63,040 nucleotides of DNA, filler included, from Asterionella formosa (GCA_002256025.1; 4 parts of 4 records of this genome joined end to end with filler, not necessarily neighbours in it), one strand, 5' to 3'. Positions 1 to 63,040 are shown, numbered from the whole stretch's first letter. Numbers and translations are program-made. The notes: a model not told the origin generated them from the letters alone.

Positions 1-1127
1 CTTTCCCTACACCGGTACCGTATGCTGATGCTGATGCTGATTTATTGGGAAACAGGTAAGCAGTAATGTGTGGGAAGGACAGACGTGCTTGGGACTCGGG
101 CACCATTGCTCAGGAGGGGAACTGGCTTACTGCAGGCAGACGAGCGAGGAGGACGACGGATTGCTTCATTACTTGTTTGTTTTGACGAAGCAACTGCGTC
201 ATGATGACGAATTTTTTTCCAGTGCCGGGGTACCACCCTCCTGGCACGTGTTTCAACCAGCCAGCCAAGTCAAGTACAGTAGTAGCCATGCGTTCTTTGC
301 ACCATGATCTATCTGTATTCTACAATACTGATGTGATACCGATACTGTTGTCAGTTACCCCCACCAGCCAAGCACTTTATGGCTCGTGGTCCCTGTAACG
401 ACATTCGCTCATCAGGAAACATATTGCGTTGCACCAAAGTATCTGGTTCTACTGGATCACTACGTATGGTACACTGCTCACACGGTCACATCCACACTGG
501 TAGACTAGATACTATATATATACACCACCGGACTAAATCATACTCAGTGGTACGACAACAATACTCGGTATGCTTGTTTGGCTCACTCCTCTTTGAATAC
601 CGGTACCTGGTACCAGGTAATGACTGGTTACCTGGTACATAAGATACATCCCTTCATTTTATGTCCATACGTACTTTCCTCCTCAGTATCTGGTACCTGG
701 TACCACCACCGGTAAATTATTATATAGAAAAGTGATAGTCTGGTTAAAAGTGTATGATGACACACATCATGTGGTCGCCTTCCGGCGAGATTTCAAGCGC
801 TGTGGATTCCCACATGTTTCATGATTTCGGAATCAAATGAGATCTATATTTTTTTCATTTTGTACCTGTATATGTACCGGTAGTCGACAACAGTTGTGTG
901 TATTCCCAAACATGGTTTCCTCACCTGCTGGCAAAACAATCCCATGGGATTCAGCATGATTGCTTCCGGATTGCTCCTTTGGCAAATGATCTATAGAAGT
1001 TGTTGTTGTTACCTGCCTTTCACAAAAATTCCACTTTCTTTCCAAATAAAAGAAGTAATAGCTATACATCACTGTATTTATAGTGGTCGTAGCAGGTACA
1101 AAAGTAAACTCTATCCACGTGAGGAGG

Positions 1128-2294
1128 ATGTATTGTGGATCAGCATCCCTACCGTCATGGATAGCGACGGCACTTTTCATCATGATGTTGTCCCATCAAC
1201 CATGGTGTAGTAATGGTGGTAGTCCAACTTCGGAATATACATTGATTCACTCATCCTCGTATCATTTGTATCTGCTTGGTCGTACAACTGGTATTACTGC
1301 TACTGCTGCAAAGTTGAGTTTGGAAGCGACTAAAAGATTACAACAATCCATGAAACATGTGATTATTGGTATGGACGAAAAAGTGGCAAGCAATCATACA
1401 TCATCATCAGCAGAAACAACAATTGAAAATGCATTGGTTCATGTAGATGTTATTTTTCAGCCGTTGGCTCCTCATGGAGACAAGGAACGAGAATTCTTTT
1501 ACCAGCAGCAGCAACAACAACTGCATGACTACTCGAAAAATACAACAATAGCAACAGCAAGTAACACAATCTTGATTCCATTTGTTGTCTTGGGGACGTA
1601 TGAACATTGGATTTCGCTTTTAGAATGGGATCAACGGATTCGTAATGCCTTGAGCACTCTATCCTTTCGTACTGCCATTTACAACGAAATTGAATTGCGA
1701 ACTGTGGTGGATATTGTTCTGATCAAGCAACGTTCAGGTCATGGTAGTAGTCGAGCGAACGAGGAGGGCAATTTGTCCGGGGGAATGGTGGTACTTTTGG
1801 TAACAAGTGCGGCTGTGGTTGCAGTAATGGCGGCCATGGTAATGATGATTGTGGTCTTGAGACGGCCAATCAAGAAATCCGAGAGTTGCAGTAATGATTC
1901 CACGTCATTTCCCAATGGTAGCACTCGTCCTCCTGCTGAGCTGCCGCCCTGCAGCAACATTTACAACGGTCGAGCGACGAGCGGTAGCCTTGAGACTCCG
2001 AACCTGCAGACTCCCCAGCAACAACAACATGACTTGGGAGTACCGGTAATTTTTGTTGCCACTTGTACGAAGGCTCATGAAAGCACGGCCGCTAGCAACG
2101 ACGGCCAGGAGCTGGTAAACGATTATTCGATAGTCAATTGTCCTGCTGCAATCGCTTCGCCATTGAAGAGCGGATTTTTCAAGATTGTGATTGCAGATTG
2201 GTTTCATTCCATTCACGAAGAAGAATCCAAGGCATCGTCATCTTCGTCGGTGGAATCTTGTGGTGGTTGGTCGACTGGAACGTCGTCTCTATGA
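1128..2294 (+). CDS. Hypothetical single-pass membrane protein
   Basis: Long ORF (track 1083..2294; first ATG 1128). Hydrophobic N-terminus, strong TM segment (GMVVLLVTSAAVVAVMAAMVMMIVVL) followed by basic RRPIKK, Ser-rich tail. No family recognised. Confidence 0.55.
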   Translation: MYCGSASLPSWIATALFIMMLSHQPWCSNGGSPTSEYTLIHSSSYHLYLLGRTTGITATAAKLSLEATKRLQQSMKHVIIGMDEKVASNHTSSSAETTIENALVHVDVIFQPLAPHGDKEREFFYQQQQQQLHDYSKNTTIATASNTILIPFVVLGTYEHWISLLEWDQRIRNALSTLSFRTAIYNEIELRTVVDIVLIKQRSGHGSSRANEEGNLSGGMVVLLVTSAAVVAVMAAMVMMIVVLRRPIKKSESCSNDSTSFPNGSTRPPAELPPCSNIYNGRATSGSLETPNLQTPQQQQHDLGVPVIFVATCTKAHESTAASNDGQELVNDYSIVNCPAAIASPLKSGFFKIVIADWFHSIHEEESKASSSSSVESCGGWSTGTSSL

Positions 2295-3922
2295 TAGCAG
2301 CCATCATGTTTAATGGGCCGATGCAGGATTGAAATACGCCTCATTGCGAGAAAGCCGATGACGATACACAAGGAGTCGAATCGTACGGCACGATTGACCT
2401 ACGGTACATTACCGGTACAAGGGGACCGTATCGCGGTACTGGCATTCATATTATTCGCTCCTGTGCATACGTGATTTTGGTACTAATATTAGGGTACAGG
2501 ACGTTACATCTACTGTATTAGCTAAAGAATTATTTAAGAAAGCAACAGTTGATGATTGTGCTGCCATGATGTCTGATGTAACTCTAGTGGGCGCTTTCGA
2601 AATACCAAAATATTTTGTGCCAAAATTACAATATCACAAATACTTTCATGATCTGATAATGGGCACGCTCTGATATTAAAAAATTATTACATATGATGTG
2701 TGTATTATAACACAATTTGTTTTGGCGATTTGACACATAATAACGTCATCGCGCTCTGATAATCAAGATATTTTAATGTACGTGCAAAGTATGATATAAC
2801 ATTAGAACAATTGCAACTTGCATTTAATTGTTGAATGTGCAACCCCGAAAGTGGCAATGGCGGGAAGGAATGCAAGGATGGTATGCTCGTTTTGAGGATT
2901 GTAGCTACTGCCCGGTAACCAACAAATATGCGACAGTATGGTCCATGGTCCATGTAGGTGGAACAACTGTAGAAAGTATACCGAATGACAATTATTCCAT
3001 TCATCTTATATTTATGATAGTGGCTTTTTGTATTCGGTTTTCCGTAAATATTTGATTGGCCGGCCGATGTAAAGCAGCATAGCAGGCAATGAATATCCAG
3101 GTCCGTGAATGTTTACTTGGTTTGTTCGATTTATTTCATATCAGAAACAGAGAATAATATGTTCACGTCTATATAACTCATTAAAAACGAATTTTTTCGA
3201 GTACTTGGTACCCCGATCCTGAGGTAGAAATTTGGTGGTATGTTGTTGCCAATTTAATCCGTCCCAAAAGAACGGGAAGAACACCAGTGGTGCCGGCGCA
3301 TCGACGCAACTATTATTGGACGGAAGGAGTACCAGGCAGGGTACAAACAGGTACCAAATGATTCGCCTCATCAACATCGACTGCGACCTCGCAGTTTGCA
3401 TTTACAGAATGTCTTTTAAAGGTGATACTGTAGCTGAAACAATGCACAAAAACCGATTTTCCTGCCGTCGCGACGGTTGGGTACCAGGTACCTGCGCACG
3501 CATTCATAGTATGTCTCGCGCCAGTTTTGAAACCGGGCAGATGGAACACATACGCACACGGTACATAAATCAACCAACCAAACGCATTTATTCCGTTACG
3601 TGAGTTTTAACACATAAAATATTCATTTCAAAAGAATACATACAATCATTTTTATACTCATCCTCCAACAAACAGCTGCCAATCAATAGACGACCGGTAA
3701 TTTAACTTCCTCATCTATACAACAAAACAACGCACGCCCCATTCAACCTCCATTGGAGCCGACGATTCCAGACCATTGCGTTCGAATCTACGAACTTAAT
3801 AACGCTTTTCTCATTCTGATTTCGAAATCAGACTCAGCATCGACAGACGCGCTACTGCATCATATCATAGACTATCATACCGTTACCGGTTGTCTATTAT
3901 TCATACAGTAGCCTATTTCTCA

Positions 3923-4963
3923 ATGGCTTCACCCTCGATTCCAGAGGATGCGACAATGACTGCAGCAGTAGGATCGTTCGTTTCGCCTCCAACGACCAAA
4001 CGACTCTGGTCGATGTTTCAAACGCCATTGGCCAACGATCAGGGCACTGCTCCTGCTACTACTGCGGAACAGGAGCGATCCATGATCCTCTCCATGGACT
4101 GCCTTCAGAGAGAGCAACGAGAACGTGCCGAACGCATGATACAAGATGACAACCATATGACGGAGGAAGATAATACCATGTTGTTGCCTATTAACGAACT
4201 TAGGAACAATGTCGATGAGGAGGCGGCGACGCACCGACAACTTCCTGTGCTCTCCTGGCGTCATGCCAAACTTCCTTCCTCCATCATCCCTCGACGAAGG
4301 AATTCCACTGGGGCGGATAGCGGTACGCTCGCCAGGGAGACTCCCTTTTGTTACAGTTTGGAATCACCACTCCATCTGGAGACAGGGGGGAGTGACAGCA
4401 TGCTGATGCCCGCAACAGGACTATTTCTTCCCAACGAAACTCCTACTACTATCACAAATAGTTGCTTCAGTTTCAGTGATTCAAATAGATTTCTCCTTCA
4501 ATTGCCAGATTACTCGCAAGAAATGGAATATTCAATGGATGCCGAAGATGCGGAGGAGGAGGATGCCGACGAGGTCGAGCTCATTCCTGCCTTTCGCCGT
4601 ATCCTTTTGCGTCCTAAACAACAACTGCTCTTGCATCATCATCAGTCTGACGCAGAAATACAACACAACAACCGAATGATAAAGAACATCAACAACCATT
4701 CCTCTGCGTCATCCTCATCTACAGGATCACCATTGGCAGTCCCTCCACAACCGGCCCTATTCAATTATGGATTGCCATTGCATTCCTTAGCACCTAAAGT
4801 TCCCAACCACAACAAAAACAGCAACTCTACCAAACCCAGTACTACCGATTTACCATTTTTACCCTTCATGACACCAGAATTTACGAGACCTACGTTACAA
4901 GATAAAGTTTTGTTTGATGGCTTTCAGACACCACCATCACTCTCCATGAGAAAGTCATCATAA
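3923..4963 (+). CDS. Hypothetical low-complexity/disordered protein
   Basis: 346-aa ORF from ATG 3923, rich in S/P/T with acidic and His/Gln tracts; no domain recognised. Confidence 0.6.
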   Translation: MASPSIPEDATMTAAVGSFVSPPTTKRLWSMFQTPLANDQGTAPATTAEQERSMILSMDCLQREQRERAERMIQDDNHMTEEDNTMLLPINELRNNVDEEAATHRQLPVLSWRHAKLPSSIIPRRRNSTGADSGTLARETPFCYSLESPLHLETGGSDSMLMPATGLFLPNETPTTITNSCFSFSDSNRFLLQLPDYSQEMEYSMDAEDAEEEDADEVELIPAFRRILLRPKQQLLLHHHQSDAEIQHNNRMIKNINNHSSASSSSTGSPLAVPPQPALFNYGLPLHSLAPKVPNHNKNSNSTKPSTTDLPFLPFMTPEFTRPTLQDKVLFDGFQTPPSLSMRKSS

Positions 4964-5141
4964 CATTGTAAAATATTCTCCTGTTTTTTAAGTATAGCAA
5001 AGTCATCTGTTCTCAGACGCTAGTAATGAAACTTGAAACTTGTTGAACAAACTATGGAACTTCATTGAGACTCGTCACATTTTTTGATTCATTTGCAGGA
5101 TCGCAAAAGTGAGAGCATTTTCGGTATATTAGTCTATATTT

Positions 5142-6419
5142 TTACCATGGATGAGTCCCATCGACCAAATCAATCCAAACTTCTGCTCGTCGTTTGCCCA
5201 TACTAAAAATAGCATCATATTGAGCAAATTGGACTCCATCTCCTTGCGATGGAACATTAATCCCATCTCTAGTCAAAGCTTCTCGTAATAACCGATCTGC
5301 TTTTCGAACCACAGGCTCCATACTGGCATCAGAAAAGTCAGAAATAGCCACAACTTTGGAAGGAATGACTAACAGTTGACATTTCCGCCATTGGGCATCC
5401 TGTGCTTTTTCTGTTGCCAAGTCTGGAATGGGCGGTGGAGTGTCATTACCTTGACCTGGTGTACAATAGTCCAATGGCCACAACATGAATTTATCAGAAG
5501 CTTCCTTGTTCTGAACAGTCATAATGGCTGGTCCCATGGGTGACATTCCTTTGGTAAAGGCCCCCAAACTTCCAAAGCCTTCATCGCGACGACCATATTT
5601 GATCTGCACTCCTGAAAAGGATGGGTACCTGCGTACTTCATATCCATTCCCACGTCTCAGTAATGTATATGGCAACTCTGGTGCTGCCGTGGCCGCTTGG
5701 ATCCCACCTGGTGAGAGTTGGGACAGAAAATCAGCCACCGCCACTTGTTTGTCAACGGGCCCGTAGGTTCCACCCTGTTTCAAATTGACAGAATCCCAAT
5801 AGTCAGTTTGCCCAACAATAATCACCCCCGTAGATGATGTGGATGGTGCTGCATTCACAACTACCTTGTAAATGGAAACCCCTGTAAATCTCGCTGTTGG
5901 GGTCCATGGCAATATCTTGGCAGTAACTCGGAGCGTCCACCTGGTCACAATGTCAGAAATAGTGCCGTCGTGAGCAACGTTTCCGCCTGTAATACTATGC
6001 AACTGAATGCCCGCATTGTCAAATAGCAATTTCCCCAAGAACGTTCTACTTGCCAACATATCCACGTTCTGTTGGTATGCTTGAACCCCCGCAAGGGATG
6101 TCATGGGATCATCAAAGGTCACGTCCTGGGCATAATACTCAGTTCGCATGGGGTCGAAGAAGGATATGTATTCACGTTCGAGGACTCGTTTGAGAGCTGC
6201 CACGGACGATTCAATGGAAGATGGCGTTGACGTTGATTTTGAAGAAGAAGCAAGCAGCAGAAATGACGGCTGCCTCGTTGGTGTAGTAGCTGCTGTAGCT
6301 GCTGATGTTAATGTTGACAGGGGCACAAAGGCCTGGCAAAATGATAAGCTGCAGAATGTAGCCACCAAGAAAGCTAGGGCGACGACTCGTATAGAGAGTG
6401 GTACTGGTACTGGTAACAT
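5142..6419 (-). CDS. Plastid-targeted SOUL haem-binding family protein with N-terminal DUF2358/SnoaL-like domain
   Basis: Signal peptide ending CQA-FVP (ASAFAP-like); YAQDVTFDDP...TRWTL...TDYWDS (DUF2358-like); YTLLRRGNGYEVRRYP and AQYDAIFSMGKRRAEVWI (SOUL-like). Confidence 0.85.
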   Translation of the reverse strand: MLPVPVPLSIRVVALAFLVATFCSLSFCQAFVPLSTLTSAATAATTPTRQPSFLLLASSSKSTSTPSSIESSVAALKRVLEREYISFFDPMRTEYYAQDVTFDDPMTSLAGVQAYQQNVDMLASRTFLGKLLFDNAGIQLHSITGGNVAHDGTISDIVTRWTLRVTAKILPWTPTARFTGVSIYKVVVNAAPSTSSTGVIIVGQTDYWDSVNLKQGGTYGPVDKQVAVADFLSQLSPGGIQAATAAPELPYTLLRRGNGYEVRRYPSFSGVQIKYGRRDEGFGSLGAFTKGMSPMGPAIMTVQNKEASDKFMLWPLDYCTPGQGNDTPPPIPDLATEKAQDAQWRKCQLLVIPSKVVAISDFSDASMEPVVRKADRLLREALTRDGINVPSQGDGVQFAQYDAIFSMGKRRAEVWIDLVDGTHPW

Positions 6420-7578
6420 GCTGGCAGGAGTGTAATGGTTGTAGATGATGTGTCGAGCGAAGAATGATTCGTATGCGCTTATGATTGATTGGCTTTTTAT
6501 ACCGGTATCTTCATTGTTAGTGTTCAGTTCCTCCTGGTTGGATTTCTGACTACCGGTACGGTAGGTAATTTCGTTGAATCATCTGTGCTAGTATCAAAGC
6601 ATTATAAATAGGAGTACCAACGGTACCTGTGGAAGGTCCGGTAAAACACGTAATCATAGCTAAATATCTGGACTACCGGACCTTGCTCTGGTACTTACTA
6701 GGTGCCAGGTATACCGTGCACCGGCATACACCTGTTGCCCATGTACTACTGGTACCTGGTATCCTGGTACCCTGGTACCAGGTAGTCCACTCGGTTGCAT
6801 CCTGGTATACAACCAACACCATCGTACGTGAGTCCGGACGGTGTCATCTCAAGGAAGAAGTGTCGTGTCGTGCATCGTGTGCATACATCATATCGGTACA
6901 TATGCATACAGGGCCTACTGTGTACCAGGTACCAGGTACCAGGAGGCAAATTCACAACCACATCATACAATTACCGGTATTACCGGTATCTGGACTACCG
7001 TACTGGTACGGTATCCAAATTCAGATACATTTTATAAACTTCGAATGACATCATCGACCGTGTCATTCACTCCGTCATTGAATTAATGCTAAATATTTTT
7101 ATATGTGATTTCTTATCATCATATCATGGTGCGATACGTACTACTACTGCTAGTACGTGGTAAAACTATTTATTTACATACAGATATATATATTTGGATT
7201 CATTTTTTCTAGTGCAAATAAACACTGGTGCATTCTTTTAATTTTTGTTCTTTCCCGATGTCATATTATAAGTGGTGGTGTGAAACGAAACACGTCGCTC
7301 CCTCCACTCCTATATATGTTCCTGTTAGTGTATGATTCATTGCTTCTGTTTGTTCTGAGGAAGGACCGAATTGTTTACCTACTTGTGGATAGAGTGATCG
7401 AGAGAGAGAGAGGTGCAGAACATTCCCAAATTCCGTACCTTGACAGTTGCATTGTATTCGCATTCAGAGCTCAACGTATCGTATCGTATCGTCTCTCATT
7501 GTCCATATCAGAAGCGCTTCCTATCAACTCAGGAATATCATTGACAAACACACACACACATACACAGACTCAACGACA

Positions 7579-8505
7579 ATGAGATTCCTTCTTTACGCCA
7601 GCACCAAGAAACCTTCAAAGCATTGGAGTAAGATTGCCTCGGCTGCTCTTGAATCATCTTCAACGTTTGCTGTGCCACAGCAACAGCAACAACCACAGCA
7701 GCAACCACAGCAACAAGCATGGGGCCAACAATGCTCGCCTCAATGTGGATGTGTCTTGAGATTCGAATGCACAACAACATCAACAAAGAAAAATGAGTCG
7801 TCTGCCATTATTACTTCGGCACAGTATCATGCCAAACGAGTCGTTACCACCAAACATAAAAATGGTCACTTGGAACCACTTACGGCATGGCCACTCATGG
7901 TCCCATGTACATGTCAGACCTTACATACCTTGGCACAACAGGTGGTCCAGTACATGGTCCATCAAAAAATGACAACTGTGCAGCAGTCGACAGAATATAC
8001 TGGAGTGCGATCGTCGTTGGCCATGCAACATGCTGTATTAACCGCCCAAAATTTGCCAGCCAAAGATACGACCTGCTTTGATTTAGTCGAAGAAGCATTG
8101 ATTGCCATGACCAAGGGATATTTACCAAATCAACGATCGACAACAATGTCATTCCCACAGGCTTTGGCGCAACGTTACACAGTACCAGTGGAGGTAGTAT
8201 CAAGTACAAATACCGGTACTCCTTCCACAATCAACATGGAGAGTGTGACTCGGTATGGGCGATCCTTGCGTCGGAGCAGCAGCAGTCAATCATTTGGACA
8301 AGACGAATCTATATCCGTGACATCACCACGAAGTATGAGTGCACTTACTATGTTCGATTTAGCGTTGATGGAGGAATTTCATTTACAAGATAAGGAGGAT
8401 TCGATAATGAATCCAGCGGCAACCGTACCACCATCAACAGCAAGCATGGATTGGGAATCATATGTAGATACCTTGTATCATCGAGACGAGGATCAAATGG
8501 CATAA
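7579..8505 (+). CDS. Hypothetical protein with divergent IscU/SufU (NifU_N)-like domain
   Basis: 308-aa ORF from ATG 7579; GQQCSPQCGCVLRF...CTCQTL...LPAKDTTCFDLVEEALIAMTKGY parallels the IscU GxPxCGDVM...GC...LPPVKxHCSxLAEDA pattern. Confidence 0.6.
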   Translation: MRFLLYASTKKPSKHWSKIASAALESSSTFAVPQQQQQPQQQPQQQAWGQQCSPQCGCVLRFECTTTSTKKNESSAIITSAQYHAKRVVTTKHKNGHLEPLTAWPLMVPCTCQTLHTLAQQVVQYMVHQKMTTVQQSTEYTGVRSSLAMQHAVLTAQNLPAKDTTCFDLVEEALIAMTKGYLPNQRSTTMSFPQALAQRYTVPVEVVSSTNTGTPSTINMESVTRYGRSLRRSSSSQSFGQDESISVTSPRSMSALTMFDLALMEEFHLQDKEDSIMNPAATVPPSTASMDWESYVDTLYHRDEDQMA

Positions 8506-8924
8506 ATTTTCTTTACATGATGCGTTTCTTCGTCGCTGCATGTGGCGTTCTATCTTATTAGCAGGCTGTTTTTGTCTCTGTGATGTATTCCCTACCTACA
8601 TATAGTAGTAGTCACGTTAAAAAGTGATATTGGTTGTTCAGAGAACATTATTGTTTGACAAAATACCCCATCGAGGGTGTAACTTATTTCATCTAACTTT
8701 CGAATGCCTGTAAATGTATAATAGGGTGCTCAAAATACGGTCTTGGATCCGAGGCCGGACTGAAATTTGTAATTCATTGATATTTAATGGAACTTGTGAT
8801 CGCTACGAACTAGAACGGCACACATGTACATAACACCATTTTTGTTAAAGAATACTCTTGCTTCAAGCTTGGGAGGCACATGACAAGAACTCTTATAGAC
8901 ATGAGACTCGAACATAGTATAGTT

Positions 8925-11900
8925 CTATGCTTGGCCTTCGATGCCACTCGTTGTGCTACTCAACATCATACAAGATAAGTCCAACTGATCCACTGACCCT
9001 CGACCGTCTTGCCACTCAGGGGGAAGATCCACAAGCGTCACATTTTCTAACGGAACTCGACGAGGAACATGAAGCACGTCACGAAAGATTTCTGCTGGTA
9101 CAATTTCTCGTAACGAATCCAGCAAGGGATCGGACAACAAACCCAGTCCAAGGCATTGTTGTAGAAGATTTCGCACCATTGTATGTTGTTCCTTCAACGC
9201 CACAATTCGAAAAATTGGAGCAACGCAGGCTGGTGTAAGAGAGCCAGCTGTTCGGGCATCGTTGAATATCGTCAGAGCTTGGAGTAGTAAAGTGTCAGAG
9301 CTTGCTTCCGTTTCTACCAAATTCTTTAAAGCAAGGGAAAATTCATTCTCGTCATGAAGAATCTCCAATTGTAATTGTTCCTTGGATGCTTGCTGCTGCA
9401 CATGTACATAGATACCATTTACGCAAACCCTATCAAGCCTTTCAGTGACGGCAACGTCATTTAGTCTGTCACTTTCCTTCGTAGATTCTGAAGAAAACTG
9501 GCGGAATAATAAACGTTGCTCATCAGGGTTGAGCGGAGTCCTCCATTTCTGTGGTAGACTCTCTATGGACGTATCTTCGACACCTGATGACAAGGGGAGC
9601 TCGAGCACATTACGGAACATTTCTAACGGGACAGACTGGCGAAAACGGTCAAGATTCAGGGGAGAAACCATGCCCACCTTTTTGCAACCATTCATTAACT
9701 TGCATATGCCAGACAGTCTCATTTCTCGATTGATGGCATACGCATCAAAAATATTAATAATCGAGGCAAAAATATGTGGAGTGAGCGAACCAGTTTCAGA
9801 TGCCTCCTTGAAGATTTCTAACGCCCTTAAAAGATGAGATGAACACCCCCCTGGCTCTTCCATGACTTTCAGGGCAAGTTGAAACATCTTTGGACTTGGT
9901 GTTTTCTCTTCGTTGTACTTGTCTTGGTATAAGCGTAAAAGCTCTAATGTCTGCTCAACACGATCTGGTTGTTTTGAGTTTCGGATAGCGTCCATACAAA
10001 TACAAATTGACAAAATATTCGGTGTACTTCCTCGATCGATCATGCGGTGGAGAACATTGCTGCACTTTTCGCTATCGCCCGGCATGCCCCTCCGTTGATA
10101 ACAACTCATTGCAGTATTATAGGTGACTTGATCCGGCCTGACTTTGACATTCTGTTGGATCCACATTTCCTCCAAGAGGCTATCTACCAGATCAGCTTGG
10201 ATAGGTAAGGACTTTGAAATGGCCTTCATGACAACGTTGTACGAAATCGTACTCAAAGCAGCATTCCGATCATTTTGGCTATACTTTTCCTGAAGGCGAA
10301 GAACCTTCTCAGCACGCTCACCAGCTTCGTTTCGGCCGCTGTTTGCCCACTTATTTAGTGCTGAAGCGAAAAGAACGATGGGGACTTTGATTTCACTGCT
10401 TTCAGCTTGTACTACAAGGTCATGAAGCAAGGTGTCGGCGACATCAGCTGGCGATGATTCGAAAAATGTTCTCAATGAATTCATGTCTGGTGCCAAGAAC
10501 GGTAATGTTTGCGATGCGCTAATCATAAGGGCGTAAAGCTGCCGGACTCGATCATCGCCGTCGCTTGTATTTAGCTTCGAGTAGGCATTCATAACAACAT
10601 TAAAACAATTGGCATTCAGGCGTCGGGACGGATGCATTCTGTCGACACCTTCGAAATTGGCGGCCTCCAAGTTCAAATCCAAAAATGTCATCAAGTGCTC
10701 TTCAGCTTGAGCAATTGCGGGAAATGTTCCAATTTTGGTCCAAGCCTTCATGACATTGCTATACGACATGCGATCTGGTATCAGATCTGTGCGTTCCATT
10801 TTCACTAACACGCTTTCTGCAGCATTTGTCGACCTTGAGCCTTCGGCAGCTTCAGCAATAAAATGAAGAGCGACATTGTAGAGCGCAAGTTGATCTTCTT
10901 TTGCAGCCAACGGTAGCTGTGCTAGCTTGCTATCCATCATATTAATTATTTCCTTGACCTTGTTGTGCGACTTTGAATTCAAAATACTTTGAAACCCCTC
11001 ATTTTGCACAACCGTACTTTTGAGCGACTGCATCAATCCTTCAATATCCTCGTTGCCTTTATAATACTTTATGTACATGCCACGCACTCGTTCCAACAGT
11101 GCTCCGTCTGGTTTGACGCTTGACATGTAGCGCTTCATATTGGATGGAGCTTCCATACGGGCCCGTTCCAGAAGCAGCATATGCCGCATCAGTTCCGTGA
11201 CGCGGTCAAGATGCAAGGAATTCCCATGAATTGTATATCCCCGCACCACAAGTCGAAAGGACTCGTCCAGTGGATGGGCTTGGACGTTGGCTCTGTAGGG
11301 GTCATTCTTTAACACTTGTAGTTGCTTCTCATACTCGGTACATAATCGACCTAACACAGCATCAGCGCGCTCAACTCCTTGTATCGTTTGTAAATTGGAC
11401 CATGCTGCAATAACACTATTGAAAATATATCGATTGGGTCGTTGATTTTTTCGTAGTGTCATCATTTGATCTAGGAAGGCTTCTGCGACCTCTGCATCGT
11501 GGATTGTTTTCGTACCATGTTCATATGCCATGAAAAGATATTTCCATGTTCGTAAATTTGGCATGGAATGCGTCTGAATATGATCAAAAACTTGTTTGGC
11601 TTGATTCGGTGGATTATGCATTTGAGCACGCATCACATGATTATGTGTCAAAATGTCCAATGGTACTTCTTCGGCGATGGCATTGTCCCACAATAATCGT
11701 ACTTGCTGCGACGCCATTGGGGTGTTACATTCAGCCCATGCCCGTATGGCCACACCGTATGTAATAGGCAATTGATCTTCACTCCATGAAATTGATTCTC
11801 TGGCTGCATCTAAATACTCCATCATGGCCCCACAAAGGTCCATTTGTTGTTCCACGGAGGTCAGTAGAGTTGTGGCTTTGGCATACGCCGTAATAACAGC

Positions 11901-13221: not shown

Positions 13222-13310
13222 CAGATCAGATCAGATCAGATCAGTAATAGGTCAGATCAGATCAGATCAGATCAGATCAGGTACGATACGATACGATACG
13301 ATACGATCAG
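13222..13310. repeat. Compound pentanucleotide microsatellite (CAGAT)n/(GATAC)n
   Basis: Directly visible runs of cagat and cgata upstream of the PPR gene. Confidence 0.9.
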
Positions 13311-13739
13311 TAATTTGATGCTTTTATGTCACAGAAAATATAAAACGTTCAACCTTCCTCTATCTGTTCTTCTAAACAATCCTATCATCATTCTTAGACC
13401 ATGTTTTTCTCATGAGCATGTTGAGTTGATGTGATCATGAGATGAGCGTCAGCCACAAGTAACAATAATAGAAGATTAGTTACGAGACGACGGCAAATCA
13501 TTAAATAATTTCAGCTGGCTTATGAAGAAACATATATTTTCATAGGGTATATATATTATCAGGTTATAAGATCTTTATTGGGTGGTAAGTACCCGCCCAG
13601 GTGTCAGGTCCAGGTAACCTGATTGTACCTTGTACCAGGTACCTGATACCAGGTGGTACCTGGTATCGGATTCCTGCAAGTTGCGGTCATTTTGCTTAAA
13701 TAAACAATTTAAACTGGGATAAAGATAGCTAATTCTTTG

Positions 13740-41618: not shown

Positions 41619-41636
41619 CCCTAACCCTAACCCTAA
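41619..41636. repeat. Interstitial telomere-like repeat (CCCTAA)3
   Basis: ccctaaccctaaccctaa directly visible. Confidence 0.7.
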
Positions 41637-43872: not shown

Positions 43873-43918
43873 ATAATCAATAAGTTTTTAAACGTATGCT
43901 GAGTAAAAAGTTAGATCT

Positions 43919-47497: not shown

Positions 47498-47960
47498 AAT
47501 GAAGTATACGGTATATGTTGGCGGAAGGAGTGTGAGGAGGATAGCGGTAGAAATCTACGAGTCCCATGATGAACCATTACGACGGACGTACGGATGGACG
47601 GGACAAGAGCTTGCTCTTCATACATACCGGTTTGCACATCAGGACAGCCGGTAATCTACCGGCAAATTGGAATGTTTAGCGGTGCGAATACAGTACCGGT
47701 ACCGTAAATTCCGTGGTCCTGTCCCCCTTGAACATGTGGTGCTACTGGTACCTGGTACCAGTACGGTAGTATTATCGGTCGTATGATGTACCGTTCTTAC
47801 TGTAGTTAACAACTTACTGCGTGTTTCATGCTGGCTTTGTCTGTTGTTGTTCAACGATGATGACCATGACGAAGACGACGACGCCAGTGTTTCTTGCCTA
47901 CCGGTACTCGTCCCCACAAATAGTACTACCAGTAGTACATCACTTCCGCACCATCGCATC

Positions 47961-49222: not shown

Positions 49223-49746
49223 GATGGAAAAGAGATTAGAGGAGGATCAACAAGCGACGCAAGAGGGAAACGAACGAAGCTGCTTTAAGTGTTGCACGGA
49301 ATGTGTCGAGATTATGATATCATTCATTAGCGATTGCAACAGCACAAACAGGAGTGTCGCTTGACCTTCACAGGTAGCCATCATACAGGAGTTTTCCTGC
49401 GCGCAGCATCACCAAGGAGCGAAAAGCAACAACCACCGGCACATGCGTGGTAATCGACTAAGTCGACCGCTGGCTGAGGAAACCATGGATGCATTTGAAC
49501 TGAATTTTGCGCGGTTTGCTTTTTCCTTTTGGTCGTTGCACCTCATCTGAAATGAACCACTCTCTGCCTGTTGGCTACTGTATATAATTTGAGACAGTAG
49601 CTGTTAACAAACCTACCGGTATACTATAATATCATCTGGTTTATTCACATTATGCCTTTGTTTGTTTGACATTGTAAACCTATCTATCGTATGAGACCCT
49701 CAATTATTAATTAGCTTTCAGAAGCGATCCATTCCAAACCAACATC

Positions 49747-52700: not shown

Positions 52701-55700
52701 AGGCAATAGCAGGAGATGACATACCTGGGAGATTTCAGGATCGTGAAAATACATCACATGTATCTACCAAGAAACACGCGTTACGTCTCTCACCAGGGAC
52801 CCCAAGTCATAACTCCACTGGGTTTGCATTTTATGATGATGACGCATCGACAACTTCGCCTGTGGAAATAGTTAGAGGTTCGACAAGGGAGCAGTCATAC
52901 TCGCCGCGAACCTATCACTCACCTGATAGTAATTCAGCCCGCACAAATCATACAAAGCGACTTGCCACCACCAGTGGGAAACGAGGACTGGATATATCTC
53001 GTCTCCGAATTGAAGATAGCTCTGATAACTGTTCTATGGCTAGTGCGACTCGACCCTTGGGCGAAACTTTGTCTCCATCGCAATTGGACTGTGATCACCT
53101 TCCATCACCAAATAATTGTCTTCTTTTTAGCGACTCACAGTCTCCGATTGAGTGCCATTCGACAATGCCGAGCCCCGATTTCAATGTGAAAGACTCCAAG
53201 TCAAGCTTAGGAATCGAACGACGATTTGATCGCCATGATACAGCGGAAACTATTGATGTCACCATGATTCATGAAATGATTCATGAACAGAAACGGCAAA
53301 GCAAGTTGAAGGAAAATCTAATGTCTTATTCCGTGGCGATTCCTGCAAGTGATATTTTCAATGGAAATACTTCCTTGCACTCGCAGCCGATGAATACGAC
53401 TGGATCCAAAGTCAACAAACAAGTTTCGCCGTATGGGAAACTATACTCACCGCTTTCATTCCCAGAGCCTTTGGATTGTTTCCAAGGTGATACGGCGACC
53501 TGCACCACACGATTGATTGATGCTAACAAAGGTGCTAACAGTGTACCTGACGACTCATTCTTGCAAGCCGCTCAAACTATGGTACAAAAAAGCAAACTTT
53601 TGGAGACACAACTACCTCCACTACGAGACTTTGAAGAAGTCAATGAGAATATGACAAGGATCAAAACACCGTGTACTGCGTGTAAAACTGCAAATACAAA
53701 TAATTCCGAACTGCATCAAATTGTCACCGTTGCTGAAGGGCGTGTCGACGGTGAACGTTCGATTGATATCAAAACAATTTTGGATCGTAACTGTGTCCCA
53801 ATTTATGCCGGCTCTGAAGTAGGAAATGTCATCAATGAAACATTATTGGAAGGACTAAAATATCCTCCCTCTGGTATAAGCCTAGCCGATGAAATTGACG
53901 AAATAATAACAAAGTTTTATCCAGAACGACCTACAATTGCAACCACAAATGATGCAAGTCCCCATCCCTTTGAAGCACAAGATATGGTCAACGAGATTGT
54001 TTGTAAATCGGAGGATTTGAGAAAAGTAACCATGAGCGTCAAGGGCGTGGTTTCTGTTTCCCTGAGCAATAAAGTCACCCAACAACTCAAACAACATTCA
54101 AAATCTTTTGGTGACCGGACTTTGCTTCACAACCCACAGGCAATTGGATATTTCACAATCGAAGGGTCGACTCAAGATAGGTCGTTGGCATTGCTGTCAT
54201 CTCCGGAGAAATCAGAAAGGAGAGAGTCACCAAGGTTTCAAGATAGTGAAAATACATCACTTGGATCTTCTAGGAAACACGCGTTTCGTCTCTCACCAGA
54301 CACTACAAGTCATAAGCCCAATGGGTTACCATTTTACGATGACGACGTATCGTCGCCTGTCGAAATCGTTCGAGGCTCTGCAAGAGAAGATTCATATTCG
54401 CCGCGAGCCGACCATTCGCCTGATATCATCGCTGTCCACCGAAGTCATACGAAGCGCCTTGCCACTACCAGCGCGAAACGAGGAATGGATCAAGCTCAAC
54501 TCCAAGCGGACGATAGCTTGGACAACAGTTCTATGGCTAGTGAGCCTCGACCATTGGAAGAAATTTCGGCTCCATCACCATTGGACTGTTCTCATCCATC
54601 ACCCAACAATTGTCCTCTTTTTAGCAGCTCACAGTCCCCGATTCTTCACCAGGCAAATATGCAAAGCCCGCATTTCAACCAAGAAAACACAGGGCCTTGC
54701 TTGGAGAGCGGCTGTGGTGCGGACCTAAATGATACAGTAGAAACCATTGATGTCACAACGATTCATGAGCGGCAACGGCGTGTCAAGTCCAAGGAAAATG
54801 GAATGTCCTATTTGCAAGAGATTCCAGCCAACATCGTCCTCAAAGACGGTGCTTCCTTTCACTATCAGCCTCTGAACGTAACTCGACCCGAGAAGAACCG
54901 ACGATTTTCACAGCGTGGGAAACAACGCTCTCTGCACTCATTCCCAGATCCTCTCGCTGATTGTCCAGGACGTCTTGGGCAAAAGATTAACGCTGTTTTT
55001 GATGAGTTGGTGGAACGGAACGAAAGGGTGATCATTTTCTCGATGACGACTGATCAGATTTGCAGAATGACTGTGAAGCTTCTCCTAGATCAAGGGGAAA
55101 GAAATTTACACTCCATTCCGGATTCAGAGGTGATGAATGGAGGAACGTTGGTTGTTGCTCGCTCAAAAGCATGTTTGGAACAGTGGGAAAGGGTTTTGAG
55201 AGTTGGAACGTTCCACTCTGTCTTGAATCATACAACAATGCCTCTGTCAGAACGCAACCGAGCTGCTACGAAGAAATTCACCGAATATGACGTGGTGCTT
55301 ACTACATTTGATGGGATAATATCTAAAGATACAACAGTAACTTTGAACAGTGAAGGTCATGTCGTTCCCGGGAAAATTGGATTTCAAGGTGGATGGTACG
55401 CTGCAGCACGTGCTGACAACAGTGAAGCCGGTGAAGCGCAATATCAAAATACGTATCTCAGTCTTCTTCATCTAATCCAGTGGAGACGAATCATTTTCGT
55501 GGATTCATTGGGAAGGAAGTGCTATCTCGCGAAAGGGGGAACGCTTCGAGGAAAAGCGGCTATAGCCTTGAATGGCACGAGTCGATTTATTTTCTTTGAG
55601 ACTACCGGAACACAGAGTAGTCCAATCGCTGCCCTTCGTAAAAGCGATCGCGCGGCAGTTCGTTCTGTTTCGGCTGTGTTGCATTTACCTCTGGGCAATA

Positions 55701-55768
55701 CAGAACAGTGCGTGATTGACGATTGCTGCATCGATTTGAATGCGGTCGTCTTGGGTGATACAGGTTGA
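49747..55768 (+). CDS. ~1974-aa internally repeated disordered protein with C-terminal degenerate SNF2 (RAD5/16-like) lobe; exons 49747-51022, 51120-55768
   Basis: ORFs 49747..51063 and 51176..55768 join in frame via a GTAAGT(51023)...TAG(51119) intron; three SPVEIVRGS repeat units; GGTLVVA...QWE...YDVVLTTFD...LHLIQWRRII. Confidence 0.75.
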
Positions 55769-56501
55769 AACTGCAGCTAGAGTAATTTGTTTATTTGTCA
55801 ATTCATGAACACATCATGATTGTAACATCCGATACCTAAAGTTAGTATACCCTGCACGGTGCTGTGTACGCGCATTTTTTCAAGGTCCGATGCTTATCGT
55901 ATGATTACGGTATCTGACGTGTTTATTTAGATGCAAGAATAAGTTGCAACATCAAAAGAACACTTATTACATAAATACATACTGTGCATATACAAGTATG
56001 ATTGTGAAGTTCTATGTATGCATCAGGAAAAGCTATTTATAGACATGTGATGAATATTTATAGTTGTGCACTGTGCAATGCTGTACCCTGGTACCAGCAA
56101 GTTGCGTTAATATTGCTGAAACTAAAGATTTAGCTATCTTTATCCAAGATTAAAATATTAGTTTAAGCAAAATGACCGCAATATTGGAGGTACAATTTTG
56201 CAAGCTGCGTCCAATCGCTCAACTATTACCGGTAAATTATAAAGAAGGGACGAGCGAAAGCGGACGAATCAAAATCAGTCGTACAAAACGTGATGATCAA
56301 TTCGCTATGAAAACTATGATGTCGCAGCTACAAGCTGGGGTATAGCTGATGATGAATTTTGCCGGTACGTAAAAGTAAATGCGCCATTCAACCCCAGGAG
56401 CGAAGTTAAATGTGATAAAACGACAAGCAACATTTACAACATTCCCCAGGAGACGAATACTATTAGCGCCGCCCAATTCATACTAACAAGAGAGAAAGAT
56501 A

Positions 56502-58629: not shown

Positions 58630-59348
58630 NNNNNNNNNNNNNNNNNNNNNNNNNNNNNNNNNNNNNNNNNNNNNNNNNNNNNNNNNNNNNNNNNNNNNNN
58701 NNNNNNNNNNNNNNNNNNNNNNNNNNNNNNNNNNNNNNNNNNNNNNNNNNNNNNNNNNNNNNNNNNNNNNNNNNNNNNNNNNNNNNNNNNNNNNNNNNNN
58801 NNNNNNNNNNNNNNNNNNNNNNNNNNNNNNNNNNNNNNNNNNNNNNNNNNNNNNNNNNNNNNNNNNNNNNNNNNNNNNNNNNNNNNNNNNNNNNNNNNNN
58901 NNNNNNNNNNNNNNNNNNNNNNNNNNNNNNNNNNNNNNNNNNNNNNNNNNNNNNNNNNNNNNNNNNNNNNNNNNNNNNNNNNNNNNNNNNNNNNNNNNNN
59001 NNNNNNNNNNNNNNNNNNNNNNNNNNNNNNNNNNNNNNNNNNNNNNNNNNNNNNNNNNNNNNNNNNNNNNNNNNNNNNNNNNNNNNNNNNNNNNNNNNNN
59101 NNNNNNNNNNNNNNNNNNNNNNNNNNNNNNNNNNNNNNNNNNNNNNNNNNNNNNNNNNNNNNNNNNNNNNNNNNNNNNNNNNNNNNNNNNNNNNNNNNNN
59201 NNNNNNNNNNNNNNNNNNNNNNNNNNNNNNNNNNNNNNNNNNNNNNNNNNNNNNNNNNNNNNNNNNNNNNNNNNNNNNNNNNNNNNNNNNNNNNNNNNNN
59301 NNNNNNNNNNNNNNNNNNNNNNNNNNNNNNNNNNNNNNNNNNNNNNNN
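58630..59348. other. Scaffold gap (719 N)
   Basis: Run of N without the linker 12-mer. Confidence 0.98.
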
Positions 59349-59540: not shown

Positions 59541-60402
59541 ATGGGAAATATCTGCACGAACGGTGACAACAACCCTGTTGACTTGAATGCTCAAATTGAG
59601 CAGCCACAGCCATTCACCCCAATGCTGCCAGTCCCAAAGGCGACAGATGCAATTTCTAACGAGCTTGCACTTGGAGCTGGATGCTATTGGGGGTAAGTAA
59701 AATGAAGTTGACATTTTCTACAATAGCCGTCATGCCGACGTATTCCCAGCCAATACACTAACTGAGCACGAACTCGCTTGCCTGCTCCAGAACGGAAAAG
59801 TTTGTGGTAAAGGGTAAGTCAAGATGCATAGCTTTGTTGCAGCCGTCTCGATTTCGTATCTTATTCCATTTCCTTATCCCAAATCCTCCTATCAATTACT
59901 AGACTTTCAGAAAAAGTTTCCCAACAGCATCAAAAAAGCAAGAGTTGGATTTATGGCCCCTGTTGCCAACCCACGTATCAGTAAACCGACGTATCACCAA
60001 GTTTGCTCAGGATCTTCAGGACATGTGGAAGTCCTTTACATTGAATTGAATGATCCACAAAAACACTTTGAAGAATTGATAAGGTTCTTTTTCCAATTTC
60101 ATGATCCAACCACACTCAACCGACAAGGCAATGATTCAGGATTTCAATATGCATCTTATATTTTCTGTAATGACGAGGAACAAACAGCCATTGCTCTCAA
60201 AGTAGGAGCAGAGCTACAAAATCATTTGGACAATGGAAGGATCAAAGCATTTTCTACCAAAAAGGTATCCACAAAGGTTGGGCCCATGAGGATGTTTACA
60301 GAAGCGGAAGCGGACCATCAGGGATACCTAATGAAGAATCCACATGGGTATTGCAATCACCGAATCCGATTCAAAGATTGGCCAGCACTATCACTGCATT
60401 AA
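59541..60402 (+). CDS. msrA: Peptide methionine sulfoxide reductase A; exons 59541-59692, 59791-59813, 59903-60402
   Basis: Splicing gives GAGCYWG|TEKFVVK|DFQKKFP; CSGSSGHVEV, HDPTTLNRQGND, AEADHQGYLMKNPHGYCNH. Confidence 0.92.
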
Positions 60403-61879
60403 TACTAGACTGCGCATTTCTAGTCGATGGTGCCTTATGGAACGACCTCACAGTCTTTATACTGATGCTCACAGCTCACAAGTATTTAGAAATCACCACC
60501 TATTTAACAACAAGAGCAAACATTTAGATCCGGGTCAGCATGGTAACAATTTTACTCCCTCCCACAACAAAAAATATCTGTCATATCTTCACCTGAAATC
60601 CTATAATTGATCAGTTTATATCATTCTCATCAATTCCTCTAAGTAGACTAGTCTACTGAAGTCTACCCTACTAGTACCTTTCAATAATGAGATTGATAGC
60701 ACTGTAAAATATCACTGCGAATCAAGTACTCCTTCTTGGTCTTTCCACTTATCATTATTTTAGAAACAAGCCAATCCATGGGCGATTCTGCTACATTCAA
60801 CTTATTCTCATATCCAGAGTGTCAAGTCCTTTAGTAAAATACAGCCTCACCATGATGGTATTTGATGCCCACATTATTACTAATGTTACAAAAGAATTAC
60901 TGGTTGCTTTGCTACAGTAATAGTACTACTCCCTTTTGGGAAAAAGCAGATGCAGCAATTTGCAGCAAGTCAAGTGCCAAGCAGCTTACTTTTAGGACGG
61001 CTTAGATAGAAACACACAATTTTTCTATGACAGGGTCGGCTCATTCGAATTTCTTACATGAGTTCATAGTTGTGAGTTTAAACTCTAGTTCTGTAATTAA
61101 AATAGTAGCACATAAATAAATCTCGAAAATAAGTTGAATAAAAAATGACACTCAACTGACTCCTAGAAACTAAAATAAATGGTAATGAGTTGCAGAAAGG
61201 ATCTGCTTGACAACATCAAAGTTGTTGATAATGTGATGGTTGTTGGTAGGGAGCCTAATGGCAAGAGATTCCTGCTGGGTTTCAATATGTAACAATGGTG
61301 AGAATTGCAAGTTCCACTATCCATGAGGAAAAATTGTGTTAAATGTTGGTAGAAAGGTCAATTTTAAACTTTCTCTCTCAATATAGTATATACCACCACA
61401 GTACATTGATCTGTAGCTTACATGATGCTGGGGCACATTATGGCAATTGAATTGGAGACATTGCTTGTGGAATCAAAAAAGTTTAATAATCACTGTGCAA
61501 AAGTTCAAGGTAGTACCAATAATGTCTACATTTAGTCTACAATATACTCCATGGTGAGGGGACCATAACATGGGAAGGGGTTACCTGGTACATAGACCCA
61601 TTCTATTCATTACTAATACTTGTTAATGTAGAATGATTTTGAGAATGTCGCAGCTAGATGTGCCTTTTTTATCGGCTCTGGGATAAATACAGAGGAATTT
61701 ATTTTACAAAATTATTTATGGTATGAGGCCATTGCTAACGGTGGACCAAAACGCCAACCAAACAGTGTTTTGGTTTCGGCAACCCTAAAAAACGATACTA
61801 TCGGGAGTGAAAAACCCAACGCAAATGCATCACATTTAGGGGATTCCATGCCATATCCCAATAAGTTACCCAAACTCAT

Positions 61880-61918
61880 TACATTTAGGTATTTTTTTTC
61901 CAAAGTTACCTAAATGTA
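61880..61918. repeat. Perfect 12-bp inverted repeat with 15-nt spacer
   Basis: TACATTTAGGTA ... TACCTAAATGTA. Confidence 0.8.
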
Positions 61919-63040
61919 GGATTCCATATTGACTACTTTGAATGTCGTCACTAGAAGCCCAATAATTTTCGTCGTAGAATCACTACATATAGGATGCATC
62001 ATATATCATATATATATACAACAATAGATAGATATACGGTACTCTGGTAATAGGTACCAGGGTACCACACTGGCAAGAACAACAACAACAACAGCAACAA
62101 CAACAAATTACTGTCTTCCCCTTGTTTCAATAACTGGTTGGAACATCATGCAGGTACTAAGAAACTATTCCTATTACTATGCTAGTATATAAATTTATAG
62201 ATGGATGCTTGTACCCGACAGGAGAGTAATTTGGCAATGTGCCATAACATACCATTTCGTTTCCTTGACTCATACTATTTCTTACTGGTATGTGGTAGCA
62301 AGGCATAGTTCAGCAGGTATTCCTAGCCACCATCAGGCTTTTCAGCATGACACCTCGTGTGTGAATTTTTGGAAGTGAGATGGGAAATGAAATTGTGTTC
62401 ATGCACATTCCTAGAAAACCCATTATTAGCCAGTATTGCGTTCAGTACAGAACGGATGGTCAATGAGTGCACGATTACATACAAAAAATGTATGTTTTTT
62501 TTTAACCGCTAGCATTTGTCGTATGGATGTCACATTTTTTTGACAACAAAGCGTACCGGTACTCACGTTTCGTTCGCCCTCTTCTCGAAATTTTCTATGG
62601 TAGACAACGAGGAGTTCCTACCTGCTCTTGCCCATCACGGTCATTTCTATTATGAGCGAACTCCGAGGCAGCTGAATCGTAGACATCGAGTCTGGATCCA
62701 TTCGGTTTCTGAAATAGCTCTCTATTTTGATTGGACAATCAATTTGTAACAATGACCCCGTTTCTATTTACCGGAAGATGGATGGGCAAATGAGAACCTT
62801 AGTCAGTGTTGCAAGGTCCCTTTGTCGCACCAATTCGTGAATTCCTTCAACTGGGATCAAGGAACTTCTTGTGTCTGTCTGTCATTGACCAACATATTCA
62901 TTTCAATCGATATTTCCTTAGGAGTATTTCTAAGGAGTCAATGTCGTACCACTTGTCGGGCCCAATGACTGGTGACGTGTAGAAATCATTTGATTGGCTA
63001 CATTAGCAATGACGACGTGTCTGCACTATTGGTAGCATTT

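Follow-up and report, generated by a model that had tools for sequence, protein, structure and literature searches.

The 63,040-nucleotide (nt) window of Asterionella formosa DNA analysed here (GCA_002256025.1) contains 81 short units bounded on each side by TA, the commonest of which spells the palindromic octamer TACCGGTA. The units concentrate upstream of genes, adjoin one another in chains that share their TAs, and in two cases differ between strains by the exact gain or loss of a unit at a TA. Tentatively, we read them as excision or repair scars that a TA-targeting cut-and-paste transposon, its ends of the form CC...GG, would have left behind and that would have accumulated in open promoter DNA. 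The window consists of four stretches of about 15.7 kb each, joined by N spacers (15698-15797, 31484-31583, and 47266-47365), with an additional N gap at 58630-59348.

Interest in the octamer came from an original prediction, made from the sequence alone, of at least 35 copies of TACCGGTA where about one was expected by chance. There are exactly 35, at every position then listed, with 9, 16, 5, and 5 copies in the successive stretches, and the chance expectation comes out at 0.4 to 0.9 overall. In 100 dinucleotide-preserving shuffles, the mean count was 0.38 and the maximum 2; none reached 35. TACCGGTA is the most frequent 8-mer of the window and leads threefold among its palindromic 8-mers, and TACCGGT is the most frequent 7-mer. 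Counted on both strands, the observed 70 compares with 1.7, 0.6, 1.2, and 4.3 expected under Markov models of orders 0 to 3, so that the enrichment survives the proposed Markov correction up to that point. Orders 4 and 5 expect 19 and 52; these models absorb the signal and inflate the expectation, because 35 of the 45 ACCGGT hexamers are TACCGGTA itself. The 24 one-mismatch variants have 0 to 8 copies each, and those with a change in the flanking T or A have 0 to 3.

The octamer belongs to a family. With TA on both sides by construction, the 81 units are made up of CCGG (35), CCTGG (9), CCAGG (9), CGG (9), CTGG (8), CCG (6), and CCAG (5), which group into TA-CCGG-TA (35), TA-CCWGG-TA (18), TA-CGG/CCG-TA (15), and TA-CTGG/CCAG-TA (13). 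All four groups exceed the both-strand expectation of an order-2 model: 70 versus 1.2 for CCGG, 18 versus 0.6 for CCWGG, 15 versus 5.8 for CGG/CCG, and 13 versus 2.7 for CTGG/CCAG. When the two half-sites of TACC-N-GGTA are allowed to move apart, 35 pairs have no letter between them and 21 have one (A 9, T 9, C 2, and G 1), with 1 to 5 pairs at each spacing from 2 to 15. Forms shorter by one letter are about as much in excess as all non-CpG substitution forms combined. The commonest one-letter variants of TACCGGTA are its CpG-transition forms, TACTGGTA and TACCAGTA (8 and 5 copies; 13 versus 2.7 expected on both strands), which nibbling of CCWGG scars could equally have produced; of the 16 words TAC-NN-GTA, those enriched are CCGG and these two. 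CpG stands at 0.79 of expectation in the window. The TA frame is present in 35 of 127 CCGG sites and 18 of 92 CCWGG sites. More generally, segments of 3 to 20 nt between TAs have the form C...G in 129 of 593 cases in upstream zones, compared with 74 of 780 in other noncoding DNA and 60 of 607 in coding sequence (CDS); those of the upstream zones run CC...GG 52 times and GG...CC never. Longer CC...GG units recur in unrelated promoters, namely a 10-nt unit at 701 and 31066, and there is an inverted 16-nt pair at 6624/6674.

Mos1-type 3-letter footprints (TACCATA/TATGGTA; 3 + 7 copies) are not enriched, nor is TACCATGGTA (0 copies), and TACATGTA has 1 copy, a background level. As side observations, the whole window has 22 copies of TACAGTA/TACTGTA, the words that Sleeping Beauty/Tc1-type elements canonically leave as footprints, versus 10.9 expected (order 2), and GTAC is the most over-represented 4-mer, 596 versus 310 (both strands, whole window).

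The units also have a characteristic arrangement. They form nine chains, in which 13 neighbouring pairs share a TA exactly. Among neighbours within 30 nt, a gap of -2 (the shared TA) occurs 13 times and any other gap at most once; jittering each unit by 25 to 200 nt gave a mean of 0.6 to 1.1 TA-sharing pairs and a maximum of 7 in 5,000 trials. The members of a TA-sharing pair are unlike in 11 of 13 cases, about 10 being expected from independent draws on the unit frequencies. Replication slippage would instead yield like units. With about 5 units placed at random on the about 68 TAs of a promoter, some dozen pairs would be predicted to share a TA, which agrees with the number seen. At 6747-6784, CTGG, CCTGG, TCCTGG, CCCTGG, and CCAGG follow one another, their differences in length lying where they meet the TA.

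Differences between strains point to whole units as the currency of change. Contigs from four RNA libraries, derived from natural, mixed samples, were aligned to 15798-31483 (15.7 kb), and three indels were listed; in two of them, a TA has gained or lost exactly (C)CGGTA. The X1 contig is short of six letters at 31237, which turns TACCGGTA at 31238 into a TA with nothing inserted, and the X2 contig has five letters added after 29011, so that the TA of the MUS81 stop codon becomes TA-CGG-TA. The third indel is a 9-nt in-frame coding deletion. The longer MUS81 form of X2 is probably derived, since the protein of the window, P0001 (98% identical), and three relatives at 60% stop no more than three residues past the conserved VIEL. 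Substitutions are listed at about 118 places in the stretch 2 contigs, against the two unit indels, which by rough arithmetic amount to about 2% of the strain differences. On the same rough footing, to hold about 26 units in 15.7 kb in the face of decay, units would have to be gained at about 1 to 3% of the substitution input, and the observed share would lie near the rate needed for a balance of mutation and decay.

The location of the units relative to genes was assessed with 18 gene models based on open reading frames (ORFs) and refined in stretch 2 with RNA contigs. Taking TACCGGTA (35) and TACCWGGTA (18) together as 53 sites, 42 fall in the 11.9 kb within 700 nt upstream of start codons (3.5/kb). 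The CDS has 2 in 31.7 kb (0.06/kb), DNA that is only downstream of genes 3 in 5.3 kb, and other noncoding DNA 6 in 13.1 kb (0.46/kb). At least one site lies upstream in 15 of the 18 gene models, compared with 3 of 18 within 300 nt past the stop, and these genes serve functions of all kinds. The supply of TA is not the cause of the upstream excess, because the site-poor classes hold more TA (1,399 versus 1,021). Distances from site to ATG range from 18 to 656 nt, many near 480 to 600, with up to 8 sites per spacer; the RNA contigs do not define transcription starts. There are no sites in three convergent spacers (4960-5145, 8502-8928, and 36401-38988), in the Copia-like remnant at the start of stretch 3, or in AT-rich tracts. 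The original prediction had placed the octamer in noncoding DNA of all four contigs, with only the copies at 2041 and 8211 in CDS. The same two lie within our ORF-based gene models, and the near absence from CDS stands; the concentration is in DNA upstream of genes and not in noncoding DNA in general. Five units of any kind lie within CDS, all of them 4-letter, that is, in-frame 6-nt additions, while none of the 15 three-letter and none of the 18 five-letter units does (P of about 0.07); this restriction to the in-frame kind is suggestive only.

The sites and related units are as follows, with strands given for the genes.

598-714: cluster upstream of an orphan gene at 1128-2291 (+), with TACCGGTA at 598 and TACCWGGTA at 604, 611, 629, and 694; chain TA-CCGG-TA-CCTGG-TA-CCAGG-TA at 598-619, and the 10-nt unit TA-CCACCACCGG-TA at 701.
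875-882: TACCGGTA, 253 nt 5′ of the ATG at 1128.
2041-2048: TACCGGTA within the CDS of the orphan gene, read as Val-Pro-Val.
2410-2417: TACCGGTA, 119 nt past the stop of the gene at 1128-2291.
3482-3490: TACCAGGTA, upstream of the ORF at 3923-4960 (+).
6402-6415: chain TA-CTGG-TA-CTGG-TA, made of in-frame 6-nt units and lying in the opening codons of the SOUL/DUF2358 gene (ATG 6419, -).
6500-7013: divergent spacer between the SOUL gene (-) and the ORF at 7579-8502 (+), with TACCGGTA at 6500, 6551, 6972, and 6981; TACCWGGTA at 6753, 6776, 6923, and 6930; chains at 6551, 6747, 6923, and 6996; and two inverted 16-nt TA-CC...GG-TA units at 6624-6693.
8211-8218: TACCGGTA within the ORF at 7579-8502, a low-complexity orphan ORF.
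13633-13665: two TACCWGGTA and degenerate TA-bounded units, 530 to 554 nt 5′ of the PPR gene (ATG 13103, -).
17899-17939: two TACCGGTA (17899 and 17932), upstream of the GST gene (ATG 18431).
19392-19629: TACCGGTA at 19392, 19506, 19588, and 19622 and TACCAGGTA at 19601, between the GST contigs (to 19259) and the ISWI contigs (from 19998).
25590-25720: two TACCGGTA, between the end of the ISWI contig (25507) and the PMSR gene (contig from 25987, ATG 25994).
28369-28752: TACCTGGTA at 28369 and TACCGGTA at 28423 and 28745, in the spacer that separates the 3′ end of MUS81 (28889) from the mitochondrial-carrier gene (-), on the 5′ side of the latter.
29012-29013: TA at the MUS81 stop codon, where the run X2 contig has the five added letters giving TA-CGG-TA.
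31020-31320: six TACCGGTA, 18 to 311 nt 5′ of the MUS81 ATG (31002, -), with TA-CCACCACTGG-TA at 31066.
39829-39916: TACCGGTA at 39829 and chain TA-CCAGG-TA-CCTGG-TA at 39901, 62 to 141 nt 5′ of the enoyl-CoA hydratase gene (ATG 39767, -).
40969-40976: lone TACCGGTA in noncoding DNA, more than 700 nt from any modelled start codon.
43294-43301: TACCGGTA, 141 nt upstream of the ORF at 41851-43153 (-).
44948-44955: TACCGGTA in copy 2 of a 269-nt tandem duplication inside an element resembling a MITE (a miniature transposable element with inverted repeats).
46838-47127: end of stretch 3, with TACCAGGTA at 46850, TACCGGTA at 46971, and TACCSGGTA at 46838, 47017, and 47119.
47694-47906: upstream of the ORF at 48064-48693 (+), with chain TA-CCGG-TA-CCG-TA at 47694 and TACCGGTA at 47899.
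47743: four-unit chain TA-CTGG-TA-CCTGG-TA-CCAG-TA-CGG-TA, upstream of the same ORF (48064-48693, +).
49614-49621: TACCGGTA, 133 nt 5′ of the ATG at 49747.
56227-56234: TACCGGTA, 275 nt 5′ of the ATG at 56502.
61582-61590: TACCTGGTA in unannotated DNA near the end of stretch 4.
62554-62561: TACCGGTA in unannotated DNA near the end of stretch 4.

Two of these places might have preserved a state before the motif, and neither is informative. At 2041, the sole database homologue of the orphan gene, P0118 (369 of 370 residues identical), also has the motif in its CDS, so the test for a 2-residue insertion tells nothing. In copy 1 of the 269-nt duplication, the counterpart at 44679 is a one-letter variant of TACCGGTA, a substitution with no indel, and says nothing of origin.

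The agent that we imagine is most likely a cut-and-paste element of the Tc1/mariner kind, inserting at TA and duplicating it. On its excision, the break would be rejoined with the last 2 or 3 letters of each end (CC... and ...GG) kept between two TAs. Ends of the form CC(A)...(T)GG would leave TA-CCGG-TA; one additional letter kept, its mismatch resolved either way, would give TA-CCWGG-TA, and nibbling the shorter TA-CGG-TA and TA-CCG-TA. Reinsertion into the TA of an older scar could then build chains of unlike units with shared TAs. Scars would concentrate upstream of genes, presumably as this DNA is open to the transposase, and selection would clear them from CDS, apart from some in-frame 6-letter ones. 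A bias of insertion to open promoter DNA is known for several cut-and-paste families, such as Hermes in yeast and mPing in rice. Excerpts of one report describe Tc1/mariner excision as leaving 3′ overhangs, which end-joining turns into TA, the first or last 2 to 4 transposon letters, and TA; the footprints of Sleeping Beauty are given there as TACAGTA or TACTGTA (PMC6943129). In a part of another report, TACATGTA is a Tc1 footprint in Caenorhabditis elegans (PMC3520976).

Several points weigh against scars as the explanation. The 62 kb of the window have no TA-flanked element with CC...GG inverted ends, the best pairs (16 or 17 of 24 letters) being the arrays themselves; 50 one-sided TACC(W)GG ends have no longer common consensus; and a scan of 58 ORFs turned up no DNA-transposase domain. 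At 43917-45362, the ends of the large inverted repeat are not CC...GG. The absence of the element from 62 kb is nonetheless unsurprising, because few resident copies are expected if excision far outpaces the decay of scars. The 7-fold upstream excess needs an extra assumption, the targeting of open promoter DNA. We know of no genome with footprints at such a density, and none was found in the literature searched; on diatom mariner elements or the accumulation of footprints at such a scale, there was no relevant report among the matches listed. The indel evidence consists of two events in contigs of mixed natural samples, with a presumptive polarity, and our conclusions as a whole rest on 62 kb and these two strain indels.

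A possible but less probable account makes TACCGGTA and TACCWGGTA a cis-regulatory palindrome that diatom promoters use generally: a dimeric transcription factor, such as a single-repeat Myb-related protein, would bind it, and selection would keep the copies. The placement of 42 of 53 sites within 700 nt upstream of an ATG and the 15 of 18 gene models with sites upstream, versus 3 of 18 downstream, are what such an element would show, as is the sharp specification of the word (35 exact copies versus 0 to 8 of any one-letter variant). Two half-site spacings are known for flexible dimers, as with GCN4 on AP-1 and CRE sites. What speaks against selected binding sites is the way in which the units are joined and varied. 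The 13 pairs that overlap by a terminal TA have centres 5 to 7 bp apart, where joint occupancy by two dimers is hardly possible, and 11 of them combine unlike units. Exact whole-unit indels, one of them at a stop codon and not in a promoter, are unexpected for a selected site, and the junction length variants, the repeated longer CC...GG units, the broad range of distances from the ATG (18 to 656 nt), and the crowding of up to 8 sites in a spacer also tell against it. Outside support comes from oomycetes: excerpts of PMC3597505 give TACCGGTA as M94 and TACATGTA as M93, side by side among the promoter motifs predicted for Phytophthora infestans, M94 with the label "high-confidence", and in those of PMC11134190, the Myb-related PsMyb37 of Phytophthora sojae binds this sister palindrome, TACATGTA, in yeast one-hybrid and gel-shift assays. 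Both findings also count against scars. M94 is itself a prediction, with no binding of it reported in the excerpts of PMC3597505, and the string CCGG is absent from the main text of a 2024 paper on P. infestans binding specificities, the logos of which are in its figures (PMC11267843, seen as text). A metagenome scan for MUS81 relatives gave 308 pattern-matching stretches and 1 confirmed locus (35% identity, 2,928 nt), which is without the motif and offers no orthologous promoter for comparison. Scars and binding sites can be combined, with scars as the source of sites later used by a factor. In its fullest form, in which promoter DNA is continuously rewritten by a TA-targeting transposon whose scars are both the commonest octamer of the genome and the raw material of stramenopile promoter palindromes (TACCGGTA/M94 and TACATGTA/M93/AM-20), we regard this combination as rather improbable.

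The remaining explanations fare much worse. The original prediction likened the octamer to HIP1, and a word bias of that sort, in which a methyltransferase or very-short-patch repair acting on CCGG/CCWGG drives the genome toward palindromes, would account for a hyper-abundant octameric palindrome with a CCGG or CCWGG centre; that TACTGGTA and TACCAGTA are the commonest variants, as if the central CpG were methylated, and the CpG ratio of 0.79 also fit. HIP1 lies in coding and noncoding DNA alike, and a repair bias should act everywhere, yet here the density is 0.06/kb in CDS, 3.5/kb upstream, and 0.5/kb in other noncoding DNA. The analogy breaks down at this point. The proposed link with methyltransferase recognition sites does no better, given that the TA frame is found in just 35 of 127 CCGG and 18 of 92 CCWGG sites, that related one-letter variants are enriched and not depleted, and that the changes seen are whole-unit insertions or losses at TA and not base conversions; a methyltransferase domain was found in none of the 58 ORFs scanned, a search with little power. 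We therefore consider such a bias very improbable. Unit-wise insertion and loss at TA argues for double-strand-break or transposon-excision repair and not methylation-directed mismatch repair, so that, of the mutational or repair-driven process first proposed, the repair-type part seems to hold and the methylation-driven form is unsupported.

Growth of micro- or minisatellites, by slippage of a 6- to 7-nt unit (GGTACCW) seeded by chance in AT-poor spacers, can point to the period-7 arrays that Tandem Repeats Finder reports at 686-704, 6749-6784, 6922-6943, 13625-13665, 39881-39926, and 47745-47759. It is just as hard to credit as the methylation-driven bias: most TACCGGTA copies are solitary (3 of 35 are in chains), adjacent pairs are unlike in sequence or length in 11 of 13 cases, both strain indels lie in nonrepetitive contexts, and the same word in 15 of 18 promoters is left unexplained. 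Least credible of all, to the point of being negligible, is that the octamers were spread by a single family of dispersed repeats or MITEs, or arose as an artefact of library or assembly. One copy (44948) does lie inside a MITE-like element. The flanks of the 35 sites are unrelated, as the original prediction had noted in setting a transposable element aside, and repeat grouping takes in short 7-nt arrays only (direct-repeat family D12). The run X1 contig at 30778-31483 covers the six sites upstream of MUS81, differing from the window by 7 letters and one 6-nt gap; since this contig comes from an independent RNA library, the motif is not an artefact of the present assembly.

ORFs of the window match eukaryotic proteins: an ISWI-type SNF2 ATPase with a SLIDE domain, the MUS81/ERCC4 nuclease, a PPR protein, a SOUL/DUF2358 protein, a GST, two methionine sulfoxide reductases, a mitochondrial carrier, and an enoyl-CoA hydratase. 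Every named relative of MUS81 comes from a diatom (Fragilaria, Cylindrotheca, Nitzschia, and Fistulifera; 39 to 46% identity), with P0001 standing beside them at 98%, and the RNA libraries matching the window are mainly lake and freshwater metatranscriptomes. From these three lines, we take the window to be nuclear DNA of a freshwater diatom. Poly(A) and metatranscriptome contigs in stretch 2 cover 18470-19259, 19998-25507 (with three GT..AG introns), 25987-26923, 26574-28349 (-), and 28889-31010 (-). RNA depth is zero or near zero in several bins with motif sites, which we do not take as a sign of nontranscription.

Some further features of the window deserve record. The MITE-like element at 43917-45362 (about 1.45 kb) has inverted ends of about 310 nt, 94 to 96% complementary and with 22-nt tandem repeats, around the central 269-nt tandem duplication; CTACATC is the sequence with which its ends start, and GAT may be a 3-bp duplication there. 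Copies that are partial (84 to 91%) close stretch 1 (15388-15697) and open stretch 2 (15798-16142), where RNA contigs have loose ends at 16108-16142, and the 8-mer TTACGTGA (14 copies versus 1 to 3 expected) belongs to the repeats of this element. A Copia-type reverse-transcriptase remnant at 31585-33557 (-; RVT_2, E value of 2e-4), with more ORFs on the same strand, forms a 2.8-kb tract without motif sites. The ORF at 16844-17494 (+) has a weak match to GCR1_C (E value of 0.0011, below the cut-off), a DNA-binding domain derived from Crypton transposons according to excerpts of the Crypton paper. The termini given in the same excerpts are TATGG and not TACCGGTA.

Among the genes, MUS81 has natural in-frame variants: runs X4 and X6 yield contigs with a 9-nt deletion at 29565, and P0001 has IKS duplicated in tandem (residues ~125 to 130). 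Paralogous PMSR genes lie in different stretches (25994-26824 and 59818-60399), and RNA contig loose ends at 26202 may reflect the paralogue. A very long ORF pair at 49747-55765 (+), of 438 and 1,530 amino acids, is without a Pfam family and has internal repeats of 1.5 to 1.7 kb that are 75 to 88% identical. An interstitial telomere-like repeat, CCCTAA x 3.2, is found at 41619-41637, about 210 nt past the 3′ end of the ORF at 41851-43153 (-), and two adjoining pentanucleotide arrays, (CAGAT) x 11.6 and (TACGA) x 5.2, stand at 13222-13307, directly 5′ of the PPR start codon. Viral contigs with two octamers within 30 nt (at least 120 stretches, 2 to 7 copies per locus) were also inspected and set aside; the 10 richest are coding repeats of the Thr-Gly-Thr type or tandem repeats from phages or giant viruses, irrelevant to the diatom. 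One viral locus (L020, 34% GC) has runs of a GGTACCGGTACC-like word beside A-runs at 5001-5144 and 9814-9829, apparently intergenic; though unrelated to the diatom, it displays a word family of similar make.

Should the units indeed be scars, an element with few resident copies could shape most promoters of a genome, adding palindromes of 5 to 7 letters at a rate rivalling point mutation in promoters. Fast turnover of diatom promoters would then have a concrete mechanism, and the TAC-NN-GTA palindromes abundant in oomycete promoters an origin open to testing. If scars also feed factor sites, transposon footprints and not point mutation would give rise to a class of "transcription-factor sites". 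If selection for a promoter palindrome were the explanation instead, this would be the first general promoter element proposed for a diatom, and its match with the oomycete motif would point to an old stramenopile factor. With either, the motif offers a cheap marker of promoters in unannotated diatom DNA.

How, then, does the motif compare with known systems? No diatom equivalent was known to the original prediction, and no description of TACCGGTA as a diatom motif was found in the literature searched, the octamer among the matches listed being primers or barcodes. Like HIP1 of cyanobacteria (GCGATCGC), it is an octameric palindrome and the most over-represented word of its DNA. Unlike HIP1, which is prokaryotic and spread across coding and noncoding DNA, it has 2 of 35 copies in CDS, with the rest concentrated upstream of genes. 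The Phytophthora motif M94 is the identical octamer, and both hosts are stramenopiles with compact genomes; M94/M93 and the diatom motif are abundant upstream of genes and share the palindromic form TAC-NN-GTA. The balance differs, since M94 in P. infestans is minor and stage associated beside the far commoner TACATGTA (M93/AM-20), whereas here TACCGGTA dominates (35 copies versus 1 of TACATGTA) and lies upstream of all kinds of genes (15 of 18). For the oomycete motifs, the excerpted text says nothing of chains or of unit-wise indels. With the footprints of Tc1/mariner elements, the units share the TA on each side, short palindromic inner letters, a free central A/T in the odd-length form, nibbled variants (CGG/CCG, 15 versus 5.8), extended junctions, and bare-TA alleles beside filled ones (two events, of presumed polarity). 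They depart from those of Sleeping Beauty and Tc1 in their inner letters, CCGG/CCWGG in place of CA..TG or CWG, with the donor element not seen, and from described footprints generally in their density (about 1 per 1.2 kb overall and 3.5/kb upstream), their chains, and their restriction to DNA upstream of genes. Excision footprints and promoter palindromes are thus known kinds of sequence; it is the scale, the chains, and the promoter restriction that, to our knowledge, are new here.

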